In this document: positions 13,818 to 47,859 of the stretch, in pieces
How positions within the stretch are numbered: position 1 is the stretch's first letter
Layout: every line of letters begins with the position of its first letter
NCBI GenBank assembly: GCA_964406775.1
Contig: CAYOSW010000005.1
Coordinates: forward strand, 1,362-65,361
Source of the DNA: an uncultured Gammaproteobacteria bacterium
GTDB lineage: Bacteria; Patescibacteriota; Microgenomatia; Daviesbacterales; UBA10151
Reading direction: 5' to 3'
DNA length: 64,000 nucleotides
Notes under the pieces: model-generated
Seen by the model: only the letters and a program-made list of their open reading frames with translations
Databases searched by the model: none
Told to the model about the DNA's origin: nothing
Made by a program: the position numbers and the translations under genes

Positions 13818-14123
13818 ATGCCTCATTATGTATATATTCTGACCAACAAATCTTATACTTTATATGCCGGGTCATCGAAAAATCTGTTTCGCAGAGTTAA
13901 TGAACATACTCGAAAAAAATCTAAGTTTGGATTTACTGCAAAATATAATCTCAACAAATTAATTTACTTCAAAGAGGTTGAAACCTACCGTGAAGCTATA
14001 GAACTGGAGAGAAAAATTAAGGGATGGACAAGAAAAAAGAAAATAGAGCTGATAAAAAGTTTGAATCCGGAATTCAGGGATTTAGCGGATCAATCTGAAA
14101 CAAGTTCAGAGATCCTTCGCTAA
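13818..14123 (+). CDS. GIY-YIG nuclease superfamily protein, YhbQ/UPF0213-like
   Basis: 101 aa ORF starting MPHYVYILTNKSYTLYAGSSKNLFRRVNEH, the GIY-YIG N-terminal motif. Plus-strand gene lying between the minus-strand rpsJ and rplC genes. Confidence 0.75.
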   Translation: MPHYVYILTNKSYTLYAGSSKNLFRRVNEHTRKKSKFGFTAKYNLNKLIYFKEVETYREAIELERKIKGWTRKKKIELIKSLNPEFRDLADQSETSSEILR

Positions 14124-14538: not shown

Positions 14539-15717
14539 TTAGGAGATAATTTTAGTAATAACTCCTGCTCCAACGGTTTTACCACCTTCGCGGATAGCAA
14601 ACCTTAAGCCTTCTTCCATAGCAACCGGAGTAATAAGTTTTACGTTAATTTTAGTTGTATCTCCGGGCATAGCCATTTCAACACCTTCAGGAAGTATAAC
14701 TTCTCCGGTCACGTCAGTTGTTCTGACATAAAACTGAGGTCTGTATCCTTTAAAGAAAGGTGTGTGTCTTCCGCCTTCGTCTTTACCCAAGATATAGATT
14801 TCAGCTTCAAATTCTGCGTGAGGTTTAATGGATCCCGGTTTTGCGAGAACTTGTCCGCGCTCTACATCGTCTTTTTCAATTCCGCGGAGCAATACTCCGG
14901 CGTTGTCTCCGGCTTCTCCCTGATCAAGTAATTTGTGGAACATTTCGATACCTGTTACAACTGATTTAGTTGTAGGTCTGATTCCGACAATTTCGATTTC
15001 CTCGTTGATCTTAACAACTCCTCTTTCGATTCTTCCTGTTACAACGGTTCCGCGTCCTTTAATTGAGAAAACGTCTTCAACAGCCATAAGGAAAGGCTTG
15101 TCTTTTTCGCGTACAGGGGTCGGAATCCATTCGTCTACCGCATTCATTAAGTCTTCTATTTCTTTTACTGCTTCTGCATCGCCTTCAAGAGCTTTTTTAG
15201 CAGATCCGCGGATAATAGGTGAATTTGAATCAAATTCATATTTCTTAAGTAAGTCGCGAACTTCTTCTTCAACAAGCTCAAGAAGTTCAGGATCGTCAAC
15301 CATATCGCATTTGTTAAGGAAAACAACAATAGCCGGAACTCCAACTTGTTTTGCAAGCAGTAAGTGCTCTCTTGTCTGAGGCATAGGTCCGTCCGGAGCG
15401 GAAACAACGAGGATTGCACCGTCAGTCTGAGCTGCACCGGTAATCATATTCTTGATGTAGTCTGCGTGACCAGGCATATCGATGTGTGCGTAGTGTCTTT
15501 TTTCTGTTTGATATTCCTGGTGAGAAATGTTGATTGTGATTCCGCGGGCTCTTTCTTCAGGAGCTGAATCGATTTGGTCGTATGCTCTGAATTCTGCCAT
15601 TCCTTTGTCTGCGAGGACTTTGGTAATAGCTGCGGTTAAGGTTGTCTTCCCGTGGTCAACGTGACCCATTGTTCCGACGTTTACGTGTGGTTTTGATCTG
15701 TCAAATGTTCCTGCCAT
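14539..15717 (-). CDS. tuf: elongation factor Tu
   Basis: 392 aa ORF with [23 protein letters not shown] and NKCD GTPase motifs. Confidence 0.97.
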
Positions 15718-15878
15718 TTTAGTTTATTTATTTTACTTTAACTAATTTAATTTTTCAATGCCTAGCCCAATAAGTCGAATTCTTCGACTTGCGCCTATCG
15801 GCATAAAAAACCAGCCGTAAAGTCAAGCTGGATTTGAGAATCATACACAATGTGTTTAAAAAATGCAAGGGGTGTATT

Positions 15879-15898
15879 TTGAGGCTAATTAGCCTCAA
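15879..15898. promoter_or_regulatory. perfect 20-nt palindrome in the divergent tuf / ORF208 promoter region (possible operator)
   Basis: ttgaggctaattagcctcaa equals its own reverse complement. It lies 18 to 37 nt upstream of the ATG at 15916. No U-run follows it on either strand. Confidence 0.35.
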
Positions 15899-15915
15899 AA
15901 ACAACGGTCGGGTTA

Positions 15916-16542
15916 GTGTCAAAGTTTCGTCCAGCAAGCCGGTCAGGGTTCATCTATAGTTTCCGTATGTCAGCCCAACCGGAAGCAGCAGTCGGCTATA
16001 GCCGTTTATTTCAATACTCCGCTACGGCAGAAGAGAGAGGTATAGTTGCAGACCAACCTGCACCGGAAATAAATCCGTCAGCACTTTCGGAGCTTTTAAG
16101 AGATGCTCTCCCCATCGGCCGGCCCGGTGAACTGGAACTCAGACACCCTTTCAGAGTTATTATTACGGCCTTATCGGTGACGGGAGACGATTACGCTGCC
16201 TACTTACCCGATGTTGAATCCGCACTCGATAAAACAGATACCGGACAGGTTACCGAAATTGGCGTCAGCGTTACTTTAGCCGGATCCGATATTCAGCCTG
16301 ACCGCGAAGCAGGACCTTTTATTAATCCGCTTCGTCTTTATGACGGAAAAACCGGATCCCTGGGTTTAAGCACAGTTACAGCTAACTTCCTCCTGGCTGC
16401 CGGAATAAGAAGACAGGCCGGAAGGATAAGAACGGGGTTTTCCCAGCCTCACGATACCCGGGATATGTACGGCTTTGCAAAACAAAGGACCGACCGGATG
16501 ATTGCCGGGCAGATTGAACCGGTTATCAGACTTAATACTTGA
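15916..16542 (+). CDS. hypothetical protein (A/G/R/P-rich, no recognisable domain), GC-richer than its surroundings
   Basis: 208 aa uninterrupted ORF in a segment that is visibly GC-richer than the flanking genes. No motif recognised. Inserted between tuf and fusA, on the strand opposite to both. Confidence 0.45.
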   Translation: MSKFRPASRSGFIYSFRMSAQPEAAVGYSRLFQYSATAEERGIVADQPAPEINPSALSELLRDALPIGRPGELELRHPFRVIITALSVTGDDYAAYLPDVESALDKTDTGQVTEIGVSVTLAGSDIQPDREAGPFINPLRLYDGKTGSLGLSTVTANFLLAAGIRRQAGRIRTGFSQPHDTRDMYGFAKQRTDRMIAGQIEPVIRLNT

Positions 16543-16574
16543 TAATCTTCTTATATATTTATATGGTTAAGTAA

Positions 16575-16952
16575 GTGAAGCATCAGTCAGGAATTGCCCA
16601 GGTTTATTTTCTTTTGATTATTCTTGCCGGAATTGCGATTTCTGTTTTCCTTGTTCAATATACTCAGGTTTTTAAACCCAAAGCTTATTCAGACGATGAG
16701 CTTGCCGCTTATTGCCAGGAAATTACCCAAAACAATACACCTAAAGGAGCCGGTCTTATCAGAATACCTGCCACGGCTCTGGACGGAAGATTTCAGGTCA
16801 TTGATGACTCGGTGGTTGACACCCAAAGCGGAGCGGCATTCTTTTACCTTGATTCATCAGACGGAACTCTGCGGGTACGGCGGAATCTTGATAATACCAA
16901 CGATAACGAAGAGAATAACCAGTTTATTGAAGTTTATATAGATAACCCTTAG
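16575..16952 (+). CDS. small membrane-anchored or secreted protein
   Basis: 125 aa ORF with an N-terminal hydrophobic helix (VYFLLIILAGIAISVFLV) and a polar, Asn/Asp-rich C-terminus. Ends 6 nt before the fusA stop, so the two genes are convergent. Confidence 0.45.
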   Translation: MKHQSGIAQVYFLLIILAGIAISVFLVQYTQVFKPKAYSDDELAAYCQEITQNNTPKGAGLIRIPATALDGRFQVIDDSVVDTQSGAAFFYLDSSDGTLRVRRNLDNTNDNEENNQFIEVYIDNP

Positions 16953-16957
16953 AAGAT

Positions 16958-19099
16958 TTAACTTTCAACTCTTCCGGTAAATCCGGAATCAGCAATAACT
17001 TTTTGAGTGATATTTGAAGGAACGGGCTCGTAATGTGATGGTTCAATATATGCTGTTGCTCTTCCCTGGGACATTGAACGGATAGCGGTAATATAGCCAG
17101 AAAGTTCAGCCAAAGGAACGAAGGCGTTGATAACAGTTGCATTTCCCCTCTTTTCGGTTCCCTGGATCTGGGCTCTTTTTGAGGATAAGTCTCCGATTAA
17201 ATCTCCCATAAATTCATCAGGAGTTGAAACCTCAACCTTCATTATCGGCTCAAGGAGAATCAAACCTGCTTTTTTGGCAGCTTCGGAAAGTCCTAAGGAA
17301 CCGGCAATCTTAAAGGCCATTTCCGAAGAATCAACATCGTGGAATGATCCGTCGTAAACCGTAACTTTAATATCCACAACCGGGAATCCTGCAAGCAGTC
17401 CGGTATCTTCTTTTTCTTCAACACCCTTACCGATAGGCGCAATGAATTCTTTCGGAATAGCTCCTCCGACGATTTCGGAAACGAATTCACGTCCGGTTCC
17501 TCTCGGGAGAGGCTCAATTCTGAGTAAACAGTGACCGTACTGACCGCGTCCTCCGGTTTGGCGCACATACTTACCTTCTCCTGTTGCCGGAAGAGTTATT
17601 GTTTCTTTATAGGCAACCTGAGGATCTCCGACGTTGGCTTCAACTTTAAATTCCCTCTTCATACGGTCAACGATAATTTCCAAATGAAGCTCACCCATTC
17701 CGGAAATTATTGTCTGTCCGGTTTCAGGGTTGGCTTTAACTCTGAAAGTCGGATCTTCTTCTGCCAGTCTTTGCAGAGCGAGTCCTAATTTTTCCTGATC
17801 GGATTTGGTTTTAGGCTCTATTGCAAGTGAGATAACGGGTTCTGCAAAGTTGATCGATTCCAAAACTAACGGATTTCCTTCATCAACAATTGAATCTCCG
17901 GTAATTGTATCTTTAAGACCCACAACCGCAACGATTTCTCCAGCATATGCTTCATCAATTTCTTCACGGTCGTTGGCGTGCATTAAAAGCACCCGGCCAA
18001 TACGTTCTTTGATTTGTTTTGTAGAATTGTAAATAGTTGATCCGGCTTTTAATGTTCCGGAATAAACTCTGACATAAGTTAAACGGCCGACGTGAGGATC
18101 AATCTGAATTTTAAAAGCGAGAGCCCCGAGAGGTGCATCTTTTGTGTTTGACTGAGTTACTTCTTCTCCTGTTTGGGAATTTTTACCCTTAACGTTCGGG
18201 ATATCAAGAGGTGAAGGTAAAAATTCCATAACCGCATCGAGCATTGGTTGCACACCTTTATTGCGCAGTGATGAGCCTGCCATAACCGGAACGATCTTTT
18301 TAGCGATAACTGCAGCTCTTAACGCTTTTTTAAGCTCATCGATTGAGATCTCTTCACCGTTTAAGTATTTCTCGAGCAGAACCTCGTCAGTTGAGGCAAT
18401 CTCCTCAACTAATTTCTCGCGGTGTTTTTTAACTTCATCAACCATATCGGCCGGAATGGGCTGTTCCTCAAATTTAGCGCCGGTCTGATCACCGAGCCAA
18501 ATCCAAGCCTTTTCGGTTAAAAGATCAACTATCCCTTTGAAATCGTTTTCAACACCAATAGGTAAGTTATAAGGAAGAGCATTCGCACCCAGGCGGTCAC
18601 GGGCGGATTGGATAGTTCCCAAAAAGTCAGCGCCTAAAACATCCATTTTATTGGAGAAGGCAATCAAAGGTACACCGTATTTATCTGCCTGTCTCCAGAC
18701 AGTTTCGGTTTGGGACTGAACACCTGAAGCCGAATCAAGAACTATGACTCCCCCGTCAAGCACACGAAGCGAACGCTCAACCTCAACTGTAAAGTCAACG
18801 TGACCGGGAGTATCGATTAAGTTAATCCGGAATTCTTCATCTTTGAAAGGACCGGATTTGGGAGTCCAGAAAGTGGTAACAGCTGCGGATACGATAGTAA
18901 TACCGCGCTCGCGCTCCTGTTCCATCCAATCGGTGGTGGTTGTACCTTCATCAATATCACCGATCTTATAAGTACGTCCGGTATAAAAAAGAATACGTTC
19001 GGTGGTAGTAGTTTTTCCCGCATCAATGTGGGCAATGATCCCGATATTTCTGATACGGTCTAACGGAAAATCGCGTTTTGTTTTCGTTGTAACTGCCAT
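16958..19099 (-). CDS. fusA: elongation factor G
   Basis: 713 aa ORF with [20 protein letters not shown] and NKMD motifs and the EF-G domain IV/V region. Confidence 0.97.
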
Positions 19100-19138: not shown

Positions 19139-19399
19139 CTAAGATTGATGAGCTGTAGAATTCTCCGGATTACCCTCAAGATCTTTGAGTATTTTCTTGG
19201 TTTCGCCGATACGGGCGGATAGAACTTCCCCCTGTTCCGTCAGCATCTGATAGGCTGCATTCTCGCTATTATCGCCCATATCCGTAGCGTCGCCTCTTTG
19301 TTCCATAATTGAGGCATACTCCTTCTCAAGAGTTGCGAGCTTCTCGCTCCACATTTTTACTTTTTCTTGCTTTATCTTATTGTTTGCCATAAAACACAA
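19139..19399 (-). CDS. stand-alone GreA/GreB N-terminal coiled-coil domain protein (mini-Gre)
   Basis: 86 aa ORF carrying the Gre finger-tip motif GDNSENAAY (compare canonical GDLSENAEY) within a predicted coiled coil. There is no C-terminal FKBP-like domain. The true start is probably MANNKIKQ. Confidence 0.6.
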   Translation of the reverse strand: MCFMANNKIKQEKVKMWSEKLATLEKEYASIMEQRGDATDMGDNSENAAYQMLTEQGEVLSARIGETKKILKDLEGNPENSTAHQS

Positions 19400-19527: not shown

Positions 19528-20826
19528 ATGGAATTTGAGGTAATTGAACAAACTTATCCTGAAAACTTCCGCTCGGACATAACGCGCGAGCTCGGCGACC
19601 ATATTAACAAACGCCACAGCATCGTCTTTATAGGTATGCGCAGGGTCGGCATATCTAATTTCTTAAGGTTTTTTCTGTATCACAAACAACTCCGCCAAAA
19701 AACTTCGGCAGACAAACACCTCCTTATCGCCATCGATTTAAACGATCTTATCGAACGGACTATTCCTTCTTTTTGGGTATTAACGTTAAAGAGAGTTCTT
19801 GATACCGTCGAAGGGTCCGATTTTGCCCCTAAAACTAAAAAATATATCGAGAATCTATTTCTTGACGGTATCCAGTCCAAAAATACTTTTCTTCTTATAG
19901 AAAATATTAAAAAAGCTCTAAGTAAAATTATTTCCGAAGGTGTTTTCCCGACAATTTTTTTCATCCGGTTTGACAGGATTTCCGAATCCGCAACAGCCGA
20001 TTTTCTGGCAAATCTCGAAGGACTTAAAAGCTCAACCCACGGCAAGTTAAGCTATGTGTTCACAACTTCGCGCGGATTAAACTCCATCTCGCCAAAAGTC
20101 TTCTCGCACACTTCTCTTTCTCTTGCCGAAACGGAGATATTTTTAAAACCGGCAAGCCCGGAAGATCTTCAGGTAATTTGCGATGCCTATATCAAGAGAT
20201 TCGGGCTCCGGATTTCCGCGGAAACGGAGAAAGAATTAATTAAGCTTACCGGAGGCTACGTCCAATACCTCCAGCTGGCTCTAATTACCTTAAACGAGCC
20301 TGAGGTGAATAATAAAAAAATCAGTAATCTGTCCGAACTCTTAGAAAACGACGAGCGGATCAAACTTCAATCGGAAGAACTTTGGGAAGGCCTTACCGGA
20401 GATGAACAGGAAATCCTGCTTAAAGTTGTTGAGGGTGAAAAACTTACGGAAAAAGATTTAAAAGACAATAAATATTTATCAGACAGCGGATTTATGGTTA
20501 AACTCAAAAACGGCTTCAATATTTTCAGTCCGCTTTTTGAAAAGTTCCTGAAGAAAAAAGCCGAAAAAGGGGAGGGGAGTAACGGGAAAATCGATCTCTC
20601 CAAAAAAGAGCATCTGCTATTTTCCTTCCTTAAAGACAATTTAGGTGAGATTTGTGAGCGGGAAGCCATAATTGAGGCCGTCTGGCCGGAAGAGGAGGCT
20701 TTAGGGGTCTCTGATTGGGCAATTGACCGCCTTGTCGCCCGCCTGCGCAAAAAGATTAAGGATGAAGGCGAATTTGAAATAGTAACAATAAAAACCCGGG
20801 GATTTAAATTAATAGGAAAAAATTAA
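19528..20826 (+). CDS. STAND/AAA-like NTPase with degenerate P-loop fused to a C-terminal OmpR/PhoB-type winged-helix DNA-binding domain
   Basis: 432 aa ORF. The N-terminal region has IVFIGMRRVGISNF, which fits GxxxxGxS with Ile in the Lys position, and a Walker B-like LLIAIDLND. The C-terminus (EREAIIEAVWPEE...DWAIDRLVARLRKKIKDEG.FEIVTIKTRGFKLIG) matches the trans_reg_C wHTH. Confidence 0.55.
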   Translation: MEFEVIEQTYPENFRSDITRELGDHINKRHSIVFIGMRRVGISNFLRFFLYHKQLRQKTSADKHLLIAIDLNDLIERTIPSFWVLTLKRVLDTVEGSDFAPKTKKYIENLFLDGIQSKNTFLLIENIKKALSKIISEGVFPTIFFIRFDRISESATADFLANLEGLKSSTHGKLSYVFTTSRGLNSISPKVFSHTSLSLAETEIFLKPASPEDLQVICDAYIKRFGLRISAETEKELIKLTGGYVQYLQLALITLNEPEVNNKKISNLSELLENDERIKLQSEELWEGLTGDEQEILLKVVEGEKLTEKDLKDNKYLSDSGFMVKLKNGFNIFSPLFEKFLKKKAEKGEGSNGKIDLSKKEHLLFSFLKDNLGEICEREAIIEAVWPEEEALGVSDWAIDRLVARLRKKIKDEGEFEIVTIKTRGFKLIGKN

Positions 20827-21161
20827 CTGTAATTTCTGGTTCTGTCCAGATATGGCGCTTCTTTCCAATCGTGACTTATTCTTCTTCCTGAAAAGCTGGA
20901 GTCTGTAGCTACAGATAAACTTCTGAAATGGTGGCCGTCAGCACCGTGCTCACGTTCTATACCATCTTCATCAGGATATTTGTCTCCATAGTCAGCCCAA
21001 ACAGTCACGGCAGTTTTAGCCAGTTCCGCCGGCTCATCCCAATTTATTTTCGCTCCGTAGGGTAAAACCTCAAAACCTAAACCTTTAGGCTTCAAATGGT
21101 GAAACCTTTCTCTTGTAGTTCTTCGTTCTGTCCCGGGTCTGCCTGCGATATGTTCTTTCAT
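20823..21161 (-). CDS. hypothetical protein (His/Asp/Gly-rich)
   Basis: 112 aa ORF in a relatively GC-rich segment. No recognisable motif. First gene after the rpsG 3' remnant. Confidence 0.35.
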   Translation of the reverse strand: MKEHIAGRPGTERRTTRERFHHLKPKGLGFEVLPYGAKINWDEPAELAKTAVTVWADYGDKYPDEDGIEREHGADGHHFRSLSVATDSSFSGRRISHDWKEAPYLDRTRNYS

Positions 21162-40607: not shown

Positions 40608-41096
40608 TTACGGAGTATAAGAATTCAAAGGATCAATTTTAGGTACAAGCTCCGTTATCGCCCGGATTGTATCTCTTGGCCTATAAATACTGCCTTCCTC
40701 GGGGAGCTGTAGGCCTTTTCGGGATAAGTTTTGCGTAGTCCAAATCGTATACGCACCTATCTCATTTCCCGCCCTGATTTCCTCCTCCAGATTATCACCA
40801 ACCACTGCACTCCCCTGAGGCTCCACACCCATTCCCACCAAAAGAGCTCCGAAATCCTTCCTCGGTCTGCCTGATCTGAAATCTAAGATCTCCACTGTCG
40901 AGAAAAAACGGGTTAAACCAAAAGCGGCTAATTCATCTTCCCTGGAACTTGCATACCGGGCAATAGTAACTAAAGCCAGTCTGATTTCACGGTCTCTTAA
41001 CTGCTGGAGCACATCAACAACCCCTGGAAAGAGTTGTTTTGTGTCAGGATTGCCTAAAGTTCTGCCGAAATCAAACACCACCGCTTCAATTTTCAT
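40608..41096 (-). CDS. HAD-superfamily hydrolase
   Basis: 162 aa ORF with HAD motif I DFGRT (VVFDFGRTLG) at the N-terminus and a motif IV-like GDN. Confidence 0.7.
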   Translation of the reverse strand: MKIEAVVFDFGRTLGNPDTKQLFPGVVDVLQQLRDREIRLALVTIARYASSREDELAAFGLTRFFSTVEILDFRSGRPRKDFGALLVGMGVEPQGSAVVGDNLEEEIRAGNEIGAYTIWTTQNLSRKGLQLPEEGSIYRPRDTIRAITELVPKIDPLNSYTP

Positions 41097-44953: not shown

Positions 44954-45028
44954 GCGCGGATAGCTCAGCGGTAGAGCGGTTGTCTTATACACAATTGGTC
45001 CCAGGTTCAAATCCTGGTCCGCGCACCA
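44954..45028 (+). tRNA. tRNA-Ile with anticodon UAU
   Basis: Cloverleaf GCGCGGA-TA-GCTC-AGCGGTA-GAGC-G-GTTGT-CTTATAC-ACAAT-TGGTC-CCAGG-TTCAAAT-CCTGG-TCCGCGC-A-CCA. It has a 7-bp acceptor stem, U33 and A37 flanking anticodon TAT, and an encoded CCA. Confidence 0.8.
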
Positions 45029-47427: not shown

Positions 47428-47859
47428 TCAGTTGTGTAGCCAATCGACAAATTTTTTAACGGGTCCACGGTTATCTTTTTTCGGCTCAGTTGCAAACTGC
47501 ATCCTCCTGTCCTCTTTCTCAGCTCTTTGGGTCGTAAAGTGATGCGCCTCGCCCACAACGTGGGTCCGGCCGGTGACCAGTTGGTCGGCATAATCTAAAT
47601 GCTCAGAGAGAGTTTTCAGAGGAGACAGCGCTGTTTCCGGCGATCTAAAACTCCCCGGAATTTTGTTTTCCATATCGATTTTACCCTGATCTATAATATT
47701 TTCGGCAGGCTGATCAGGGACGTGCACAGGCTTGACCGCTTCGTATGTCACCGGAACTCCCGCATTTTGCAAATTCCCGGCTACGGATTTCTGGAGATCA
47801 TTAAGACGGGTTTCCGTATATGTAATTTGGGCACTAGGCTGGGCAGGTACTTCGGCCAT
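47428..47859 (-). CDS. hypothetical protein
   Basis: 143 aa ORF immediately downstream of the ATPase gene. No motif recognised. Confidence 0.35.
   Translation of the reverse strand: MAEVPAQPSAQITYTETRLNDLQKSVAGNLQNAGVPVTYEAVKPVHVPDQPAENIIDQGKIDMENKIPGSFRSPETALSPLKTLSEHLDYADQLVTGRTHVVGEAHHFTTQRAEKEDRRMQFATEPKKDNRGPVKKFVDWLHN

Follow-up and report, generated by a model that had tools for sequence, protein, structure and literature searches.

The 64,000-nt stretch analysed here (the window; contig CAYOSW010000005.1 of assembly GCA_964406775.1) carries the genes for the elongation factors EF-Tu (tuf) and EF-G (fusA) on the minus strand, separated by a spacer of 1240 bp (15718-16957) that lies between the start of tuf at 15717 and the end of fusA at 16958. 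The ORF list places two plus-strand open reading frames (ORFs) in this spacer, at 15916-16542 and 16575-16952, and the spacer is very likely a lineage-restricted accessory module of two genes carried on the opposite strand. The two ORFs are real protein genes that evolve under purifying selection, one for a 191-aa acidic soluble protein and the other for a 125-aa single-pass membrane protein. Both proteins belong to no described family, and both genes are confined to a narrow group of Daviesbacteria-like bacteria of the candidate phyla radiation (CPR). A first-pass annotation of the sequence had noted that 1.2 kb of opposite-strand genes parts tuf from fusA and that the str operon is broken at this point, and both statements were confirmed.

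Two orphan protein-coding genes between tuf and fusA

Homologues of the 191-aa protein were found at three other loci, namely L002 (P0001, 97% identity), L001 (P0002, 64%) and L083 (P0003, 47%), and the comparison with them is decisive for the protein-coding verdict. Differences between the window and its homologues fall mostly at third codon positions, with counts at positions 1/2/3 of 3/2/23 for L002 (21 codons with synonymous changes only and 7 with non-synonymous ones), 48/39/107 for L001 and 75/66/128 for L083, and the indels among the homologues comprise whole codons. For the 125-aa gene the corresponding counts were 16/3/51 against L090 and 34/17/63 against L084. The three-nucleotide periodicity that the first-pass annotation had proposed as a check is present in the 191-aa gene, where the power at period 3 was 5.4 times the spectrum mean; it was 7.1 times that mean in the 125-aa gene, while shuffled sequences average 1.0. 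GC content decreases over the three codon positions of the 191-aa gene (0.58/0.50/0.43), the same pattern as in tuf and fusA, and the other five frames of the first ORF carry 8-17 stop codons.

A different origin had been considered for the segment 15900-16560, namely a structured non-coding RNA whose composition generates the long ORF as a by-product. Its local GC content (0.50 vs 0.42 for the window) and the lack of a recognisable family for the 191-aa protein speak for such an RNA, but the remaining evidence refutes it. Scanning the whole window with Rfam at gathering score returned two tRNAs elsewhere and none in the spacer; at E<=10 the interval 15600-17100 gave only two chance matches of 11 bits, and ARAGORN called no transfer-messenger RNA. 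The minimum free energy of 15900-16560 was no better than that of dinucleotide shuffles on either strand (z +0.72 on the plus strand and -0.63 on the minus strand). With homologues at 64% and 47% amino-acid identity that hold the reading frame, and whose GC content is only 0.42 and 0.41, the RNA reading is vanishingly improbable.

The 191-aa protein has an isoelectric point (pI) of 5.1 and contains no hydrophobic or transmembrane segment. The first-pass description of the ORF at 15916-16542 as GC-richer, rich in A, G, R and P and without a recognisable family holds: its GC content is 0.50, these four residues make up 67 of the 191, and neither Pfam nor NCBIfam gave a match. Arginine is favoured over lysine (16 R, 3 K). 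Since the homologues are not GC-rich, the raised GC is peculiar to the window lineage. The extent of the gene had to be corrected, from a 208-aa ORF starting at GTG 15916 to a 191-aa product starting at ATG 15967, because the L001 homologue has its start at the codon corresponding to ATG 15967, preceded by an in-frame stop codon, and because public gene calls contain the exact 191-aa product and not the 208-aa version.

The 125-aa protein has one N-terminal hydrophobic segment (residues ~7-28; 19-residue Kyte-Doolittle maximum 2.58), in agreement with the earlier description of the second ORF as a small membrane protein. Its remainder is acidic (pI 4.4), and this tail is probably extracytoplasmic. 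In five sequences that are 40-87% identical overall, the first 49 residues are far better conserved than the rest, with Q4, G6, A8, Q9 and G19 and the block LVQYTQVFK.KA.S..L..YC nearly invariant; the highly conserved N-terminal pattern of the family is QxG-IAQ...LVQYTQVFKPKAYS..L..YC. Leader and helix read MKHQSG followed by IAQVYFLLIILAGIAISVFLV, in which Q4, G6, A8 and Q9 are invariant in the five sequences. The acidic C-terminal part contains two short repeats of the form SG..F[FY].D..DG..R. The motif SGAAFFYLDSSDGTLRVRRNLD (window 16830-16900, residues ~86-108) is weakly similar to the cadherin-repeat pattern F.ID..TG.I...R.LDRE, and a PDB profile match of the protein to CELSR1 was not significant (E 1.5).

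Searches of Pfam, NCBIfam, PHROGs, PADLOC and PDB sequences at E<=1-10 assigned no family to either protein or to their homologues and gave only isolated chance-level matches (E 0.12-0.45). The three homologues of the 191-aa protein were all that was found among 5.8 billion clusters; a HMMER search of 1.84 billion representatives returned two matches, of which only P0003 was new, and the GTDB species representatives contained none. The membrane-protein family comprises four other clusters. No match to either protein was found in JGI metagenome contigs, in IMG/VR, or by tblastn against phage and plasmid collections, and neither has a paralogue in the window or in the Daviesbacteria loci. The spacer therefore adds two uncharacterised and very rare protein families, the soluble one known from four sequences and the membrane one from five clusters, window included.

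The gene pair in related lineages and its putative transcription signals

The spacer of the 97%-identical relative L002 has the same content and order as that of the window, with tuf (-), the 191-aa gene (+), the 125-aa gene (+) and fusA (-). At the L084-L089 loci (fusA 94% identical) the 191-aa gene is absent, and a single 134-aa homologue (+) of the membrane protein lies between tuf (-) and fusA (-); alignment with L084 showed that window positions 15720-15927 are conserved and followed by a deletion to ~16537. At L090 (fusA fragment 99% identical) the order is an unrelated 105-aa gene (-), a 35-codon remnant of the 191-aa gene, a 128-aa homologue (+) of the membrane protein and fusA (-). 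The remnant corresponds to the last 35 codons of the 191-aa gene and reads ..DTKDMHNFARQQTNRMLAGEVEPAIRLHP*. L091 carries a Band_7 gene (-), a 145-aa homologue (+) and fusA (-), while L083 encodes a 200-aa homologue (+) of the first protein and a 139-aa homologue (+) of the second, both ~45% identical to those of the window.

The membrane-protein gene is the stable resident of the spacer and in four lineages converges on the fusA 3' end. Its upstream companion, the 191-aa gene, is facultative; the two occur together in the window, L002 and the distant L083, and the pair is ancestral to the group spanning the window and L083. Deleted in L084 and reduced to a remnant in L090, the 191-aa gene is dispensable and has been lost at least twice. 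Sequences upstream of it are also shared: the window, L001 and L083 have the TATAGTTT-N4-ATG start in common, and the conserved upstream block (Table 1), which has no further copy elsewhere in the window, reads AAATGCAA.AGGTGT in L083.

Two partial copies of the fusA 3' end were observed in L083. One of 26 nt (720-745; 92% identical to L084) encodes ..AGFTGRVEQ* and sits between the genes for the 200-aa and 139-aa proteins, and the other of 21 nt (1331-1351) lies downstream of the 139-aa gene. They could stem from a rearrangement, from a duplication or from misassembly of this short contig.

Promoter-like sites were found close to the start codons of the genes in and around the spacer. That of the 125-aa gene overlaps the stop codon of the 191-aa gene, and its -35/17/-10/7/GTG layout was also read by eye in L084, L090 and L083 (TTGACA-17-TACATT-7-GTG in the last). 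Since the 125-aa gene has this site of its own, the two genes are probably separate transcription units. For tuf, which has no Shine-Dalgarno sequence, the site lies 12 nt ahead of the ATG, and TAGAAT precedes the ATG of fusA by 8 nt. A candidate sigma-70 promoter in 15855-15885 was rejected, as no convincing -35/-10 pair was common to three lineages. Both the 191-aa and the 125-aa gene lack a Shine-Dalgarno sequence and have a -10 box 6-7 nt ahead of the start codon, so that each would be transcribed from its own promoter as a leaderless mRNA.

This kind of start is frequent in the window. A -10-like box was found 5-9 nt before the start codon in 20 of the 38 operon-first genes, compared with 11% at random positions, and a Shine-Dalgarno-like motif in 5 of the 38, compared with 13 of the 35 genes internal to ribosomal operons, which suggests that leaderless mRNAs may be widespread in this genome. 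Genes with such a TATAAT-like box and without a Shine-Dalgarno motif include those at 40608-41096, 47428-47859, 19528-20826 and 16958-19099.

The 125-aa gene and fusA converge, with their stop codons 5 nt apart. No terminator-like site was found at this junction, and the first minus-strand hairpin followed by six or more U lies 1.1 kb further on; transcription from the highly expressed fusA would therefore probably run antisense through both genes, to the hairpin at 15831-15805. This hairpin is a putative terminator, and its stem is kept in L084 with a changed loop (z -2.07 there). Expression of both accessory genes could thus be inversely coupled to fusA transcription and dampened when the latter is strong, while a promoter of its own would drive tuf. 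As for function, the 125-aa protein might tentatively be regarded as a surface or envelope factor anchored in the membrane, with the 191-aa protein as its non-essential cytoplasmic partner. The convergent fusA junction without a terminator offers a simple case in which antisense coupling of a housekeeping gene with an accessory gene could be tested.

Several points weigh against this picture of a coupled two-gene module. At -7.8 kcal/mol and z -1.15, the minus-strand hairpin of the window is a weak one, and termination after fusA may be Rho-dependent. Leaderless transcription, antisense read-through and interference are all read from sequence patterns, and the association of the two proteins from their adjacency in two independent lineages and a remnant in a third. 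Several of the relatives are short contigs (585-2031 nt), some of them possibly misassembled. AlphaFold models built from 3-4 sequences had mean confidence scores (pLDDT) of 41.7 and 43.3 and were unusable, and a Foldseek search of the PDB with the better of the two, still of low confidence, gave 0 matches at E<=0.001, with TM-scores <=0.2.

Table 1. Features of the tuf-fusA region and related genes at other loci (window coordinates unless a locus is named).
Feature	Coordinates	Strand	Basis or remark
tuf (EF-Tu, 392 aa)	14539-15717	-	ORF and translation; L084 orthologue with GTP_EFTU domains; lower boundary of spacer
Promoter-like site of tuf, TTGAAA-17-TAAAAT	15730-15758	-	consensus scan, 10/12 matches; consensus match only
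Hairpin CCAGCU...GGCUGG, then UUUUUU (putative terminator)	15805-15831	-	sole hairpin with >=6 U between fusA stop and tuf
Conserved upstream block AAATGCAAGGGGTGT	15861-15875	+	alignment; also in L083 and in L084 (without 191-aa gene)
Perfect 24-nt palindrome TTTTGAGGCTAATTAGCCTCAAAA (12+12 dyad)	15877-15900		identical in L002
-10-like box TATAGT	15954-15959	+	6 nt before ATG 15967
Gene for 191-aa acidic soluble orphan protein	15967-16542	+	homologues, codon-position statistics, public gene calls
Promoter-like site of 125-aa gene, TTGATA-17-TATGGT	16539-16567	+	7 nt before GTG 16575
Gene for 125-aa single-pass membrane protein	16575-16952	+	hydropathy, alignment, codon-position differences
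fusA (EF-G, 713 aa)	16958-19099	-	ORF list; converges with 125-aa gene
GreA_N-only gene	19139-19399	-	
GreA_N-only gene, L003	5255-5485		
GreA_N-only gene, L084	12666-12923		
Parcubacteria-type small ORF, L009	8124-8432		
Parcubacteria-type small ORF, L010	8081-8413		
Parcubacteria-type small ORF, L014	10797-11075		
Parcubacteria-type small ORF, L022	3897-4319		
Parcubacteria-type small ORF, L023	9923-10291		
Parcubacteria-type small ORF, L024	8201-8446		
Parcubacteria-type small ORF, L025	10057-10509		
Parcubacteria-type small ORF, L034	10999-11280		
Parcubacteria-type small ORF, L069	4052-4456		

Alternative readings of the gene pair and the palindrome

The 191-aa gene could instead be a recent horizontal acquisition or a selfish insertion, as its GC content against that of the genome, its variable presence among close relatives (absent from L084, truncated in L090) and another opposite-strand insertion in the ribosomal gene cluster, a GIY-YIG gene, would suggest. 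This is unlikely, however, since L083 has the same pair together with the upstream block and the start signal while both proteins have diverged to ~45% identity, which suggests vertical descent with later losses; moreover, no repeats, integrase or transposase flank the gene, and the phage, plasmid and viral collections gave no match. A pair of small-protein genes with patchy distribution and easy loss also recalls toxin-antitoxin or phage-defence modules, but PADLOC and PHROGs gave no match and no motif of a nuclease, kinase or ATPase was seen; the two promoters are separate, and the membrane-protein gene stands alone in three lineages (L084, L090 and L091), unlike an addictive pair. Such a role is highly improbable. 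The 125-aa protein was further considered as a divergent type IV pilin-like subunit cut by prepilin peptidase, with the 191-aa protein as its accessory factor. Its short, charged and basic leader ends in the invariant Gly of QxG directly before ~22 hydrophobic residues that contain an internal invariant Gly and are followed by LVQYTQVF, a pattern that resembles the alpha1 helix of pilins (G-1, G14, PQYQNY); conservation is also much higher at the N-terminus than in the remainder, and the size is typical of pilins. Against this, position +5 is Tyr or Thr instead of Glu, no N_methyl, TIGR02532-type or other prepilin N-terminal model of Pfam or NCBIfam matched any member at E<=1-10, the PDB profile search returned no pilin, the protein has a single Cys and no pilus genes are adjacent. 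The pilin reading is therefore very unlikely, and the protein was not classed as a pilin for want of Glu+5 and of a match to the N_methyl hidden Markov model (HMM). More speculative still, and with only a slight chance of being right, is the idea that the membrane protein serves an episymbiotic CPR bacterium as a non-canonical pilin-like or surface-attachment subunit, with the 191-aa protein as its dedicated cytoplasmic partner, and that both genes are expressed only when translation-factor transcription drops; if so, the antisense placement in the fusA read-through would be a built-in growth-rate switch for a surface factor.

The palindrome upstream of the 191-aa gene had been reported as a perfect 20-nt repeat that looks like an operator in a divergent promoter shared with tuf. 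The repeat itself is real and beyond chance, although its full length is 24 nt: the 20-nt core TTGAGGCTAATTAGCCTCAA (15879-15898) is unique in the window even with 3 mismatches and occurred in 0 of 100 shuffles, and no other perfect palindrome of 24 nt exists in the 64 kb. As RNA it folds with -14.6 kcal/mol (z -5.1). A dimeric repressor bound here could control the divergent tuf and 191-aa gene promoters, in keeping with the uniqueness of the dyad, its rank as the longest in the window, its place in the divergent intergenic region and its identity in L002. The dyad centre, however, lies 78.5 bp upstream of ATG 15967, the putative transcription start, and the dyad lies ~120 bp upstream of the tuf promoter-like site, so that it overlaps neither this site nor the -10 box of the 191-aa gene; a hairpin and T-run part it from the tuf promoter. 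The orthologous sequences in L083 (TTTGTGCCTATTTAGCCTCC) and L084 (TTTAGGCTCGGTTTAGGCAC) are neither palindromic nor able to fold (z -0.54 and -0.25, respectively), the half-site shows no enrichment across the window (56 matches vs 51 expected), and no helix-turn-helix protein is encoded adjacent. The gene for a 432-aa Trans_reg_C protein lies 3.6 kb away, and nothing ties this protein to the site. The operator claim was thus found unsupported and is improbable, the palindrome being a statistically real feature of the window lineage only. If functional, it could serve a dimeric regulator as an upstream binding site or form an RNA hairpin, and would not be a promoter-overlapping operator. A role as bidirectional intrinsic terminator was rejected, as the stem is followed by A residues and not by U on both strands.

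The locus compared with known gene arrangements

The minus-strand genes in this part of the window include rplB, rplW, rplD, rplC, rpsJ, tuf and fusA. In L002 the genes beyond fusA are those for a GreA_N-only protein, a Trans_reg_C protein and an orphan, and then rpsG, rpsL, rpoC and rpoB. The nearest fusA among GTDB species representatives is that of a Candidatus Daviesbacteria metagenome-assembled genome (84% amino-acid identity), which marks the source organism as Daviesbacteria-like within the Patescibacteria. In L003, the closest GTDB representative, tuf does not follow fusA.

A survey of 80 loci fetched with fusA showed that the fusA-tuf gap is <300 bp in most bacteria and reaches 0.45-3.4 kb, with small lineage-specific genes inside, in about a dozen loci from Patescibacteria; the ORFs in these gaps are unrelated to both proteins described here (phmmer E>0.6). 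The first-pass statement that fusA and tuf are usually adjacent is thus correct for bacteria in general and weak for this phylum. The comparison of the spacer among relatives that it had proposed showed variable content, in which the gene pair is not universal. The fusA-tuf junction of Patescibacteria is a tolerated landing place for small lineage-specific genes, and a break there is therefore no sign of anything exotic: the locus is real but ordinary for CPR genomes. What is gained for annotation is the correct start of the 191-aa gene and the verdict that it is coding and not RNA; knowledge of the str operon is unchanged and no new mechanism was identified.

The first break of the str operon (19528-21161), located between rpsG and the GreA_N gene, contains the plus-strand gene for the 432-aa protein, which has a C-terminal OmpR/PhoB-type winged-helix domain (Trans_reg_C, E 2e-13), and a 112-aa orphan gene on the minus strand; both genes are kept in L002 and L084 and absent from L003. 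The GreA_N-only gene encodes a protein of 76-86 aa that has the GreA/GreB N-terminal coiled coil and nothing else, and lies directly upstream of fusA in three Daviesbacteria lineages. The GIY-YIG gene (13818-14123, plus strand) encodes a free-standing nuclease domain of 101 aa (Pfam E 4e-15) on the opposite strand between rplC and rpsJ, and its position in L084 is occupied by an unrelated 120-aa gene, indicating another variable insertion point in the cluster. Ribosomal proteins L23 (11462-11947, 161 aa) and L3 (12720-13550, 276 aa) have long charged C-terminal extensions compared with typical bacterial sizes. Elsewhere in the window, at 44954-45028, ARAGORN called a tRNA-Ile with anticodon TAT (UAU), which scored 74 bits against the Rfam tRNA model. 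In most bacteria AUA is read by a lysidine-modified CAU tRNA, and a UAU tRNA-Ile is uncommon.

Compared with the N-terminal domain of type IV pilins (class III signal peptide), the 125-aa protein shares the short Gly-ended leader, the conserved hydrophobic helix with an internal Gly, a Q-Y-x-Q motif and a similar size, and differs in having no Glu+5, no N_methyl HMM match and no disulfide pair. The fusA junction is similar to excludon-type antisense-overlap arrangements in that the stop codons of two convergent genes are 5 nt apart and no terminator is present, whereby each transcript must run into the other gene; unlike in those systems, the overlap and its regulatory consequence are here predicted from the sequence. 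The other Patescibacteria spacers resemble this one in having gaps filled with small lineage-specific genes, and differ in that both genes here are on the opposite strand and converge on fusA. Many Parcubacteria-type loci, in contrast, carry between fusA and tuf a conserved small ORF on the same strand, with the motif ..KKTGDR..I.D....YV.M.L.EYE.L....IN.DIA.WK and a weak, sub-threshold similarity to Phd/YefM antitoxins (E 6e-4 to 6e-3). The canonical str operon (rpsL-rpsG-fusA-tuf) has the same four genes as the locus described here, in the same order and on a single strand, followed by the S10 operon. The Daviesbacteria-like locus differs from it in being interrupted twice, between rpsG and fusA by the GreA_N-only, 432-aa Trans_reg_C and 112-aa orphan genes and between fusA and tuf by the two opposite-strand genes, and in that fusA and tuf each have a promoter-like site of their own.

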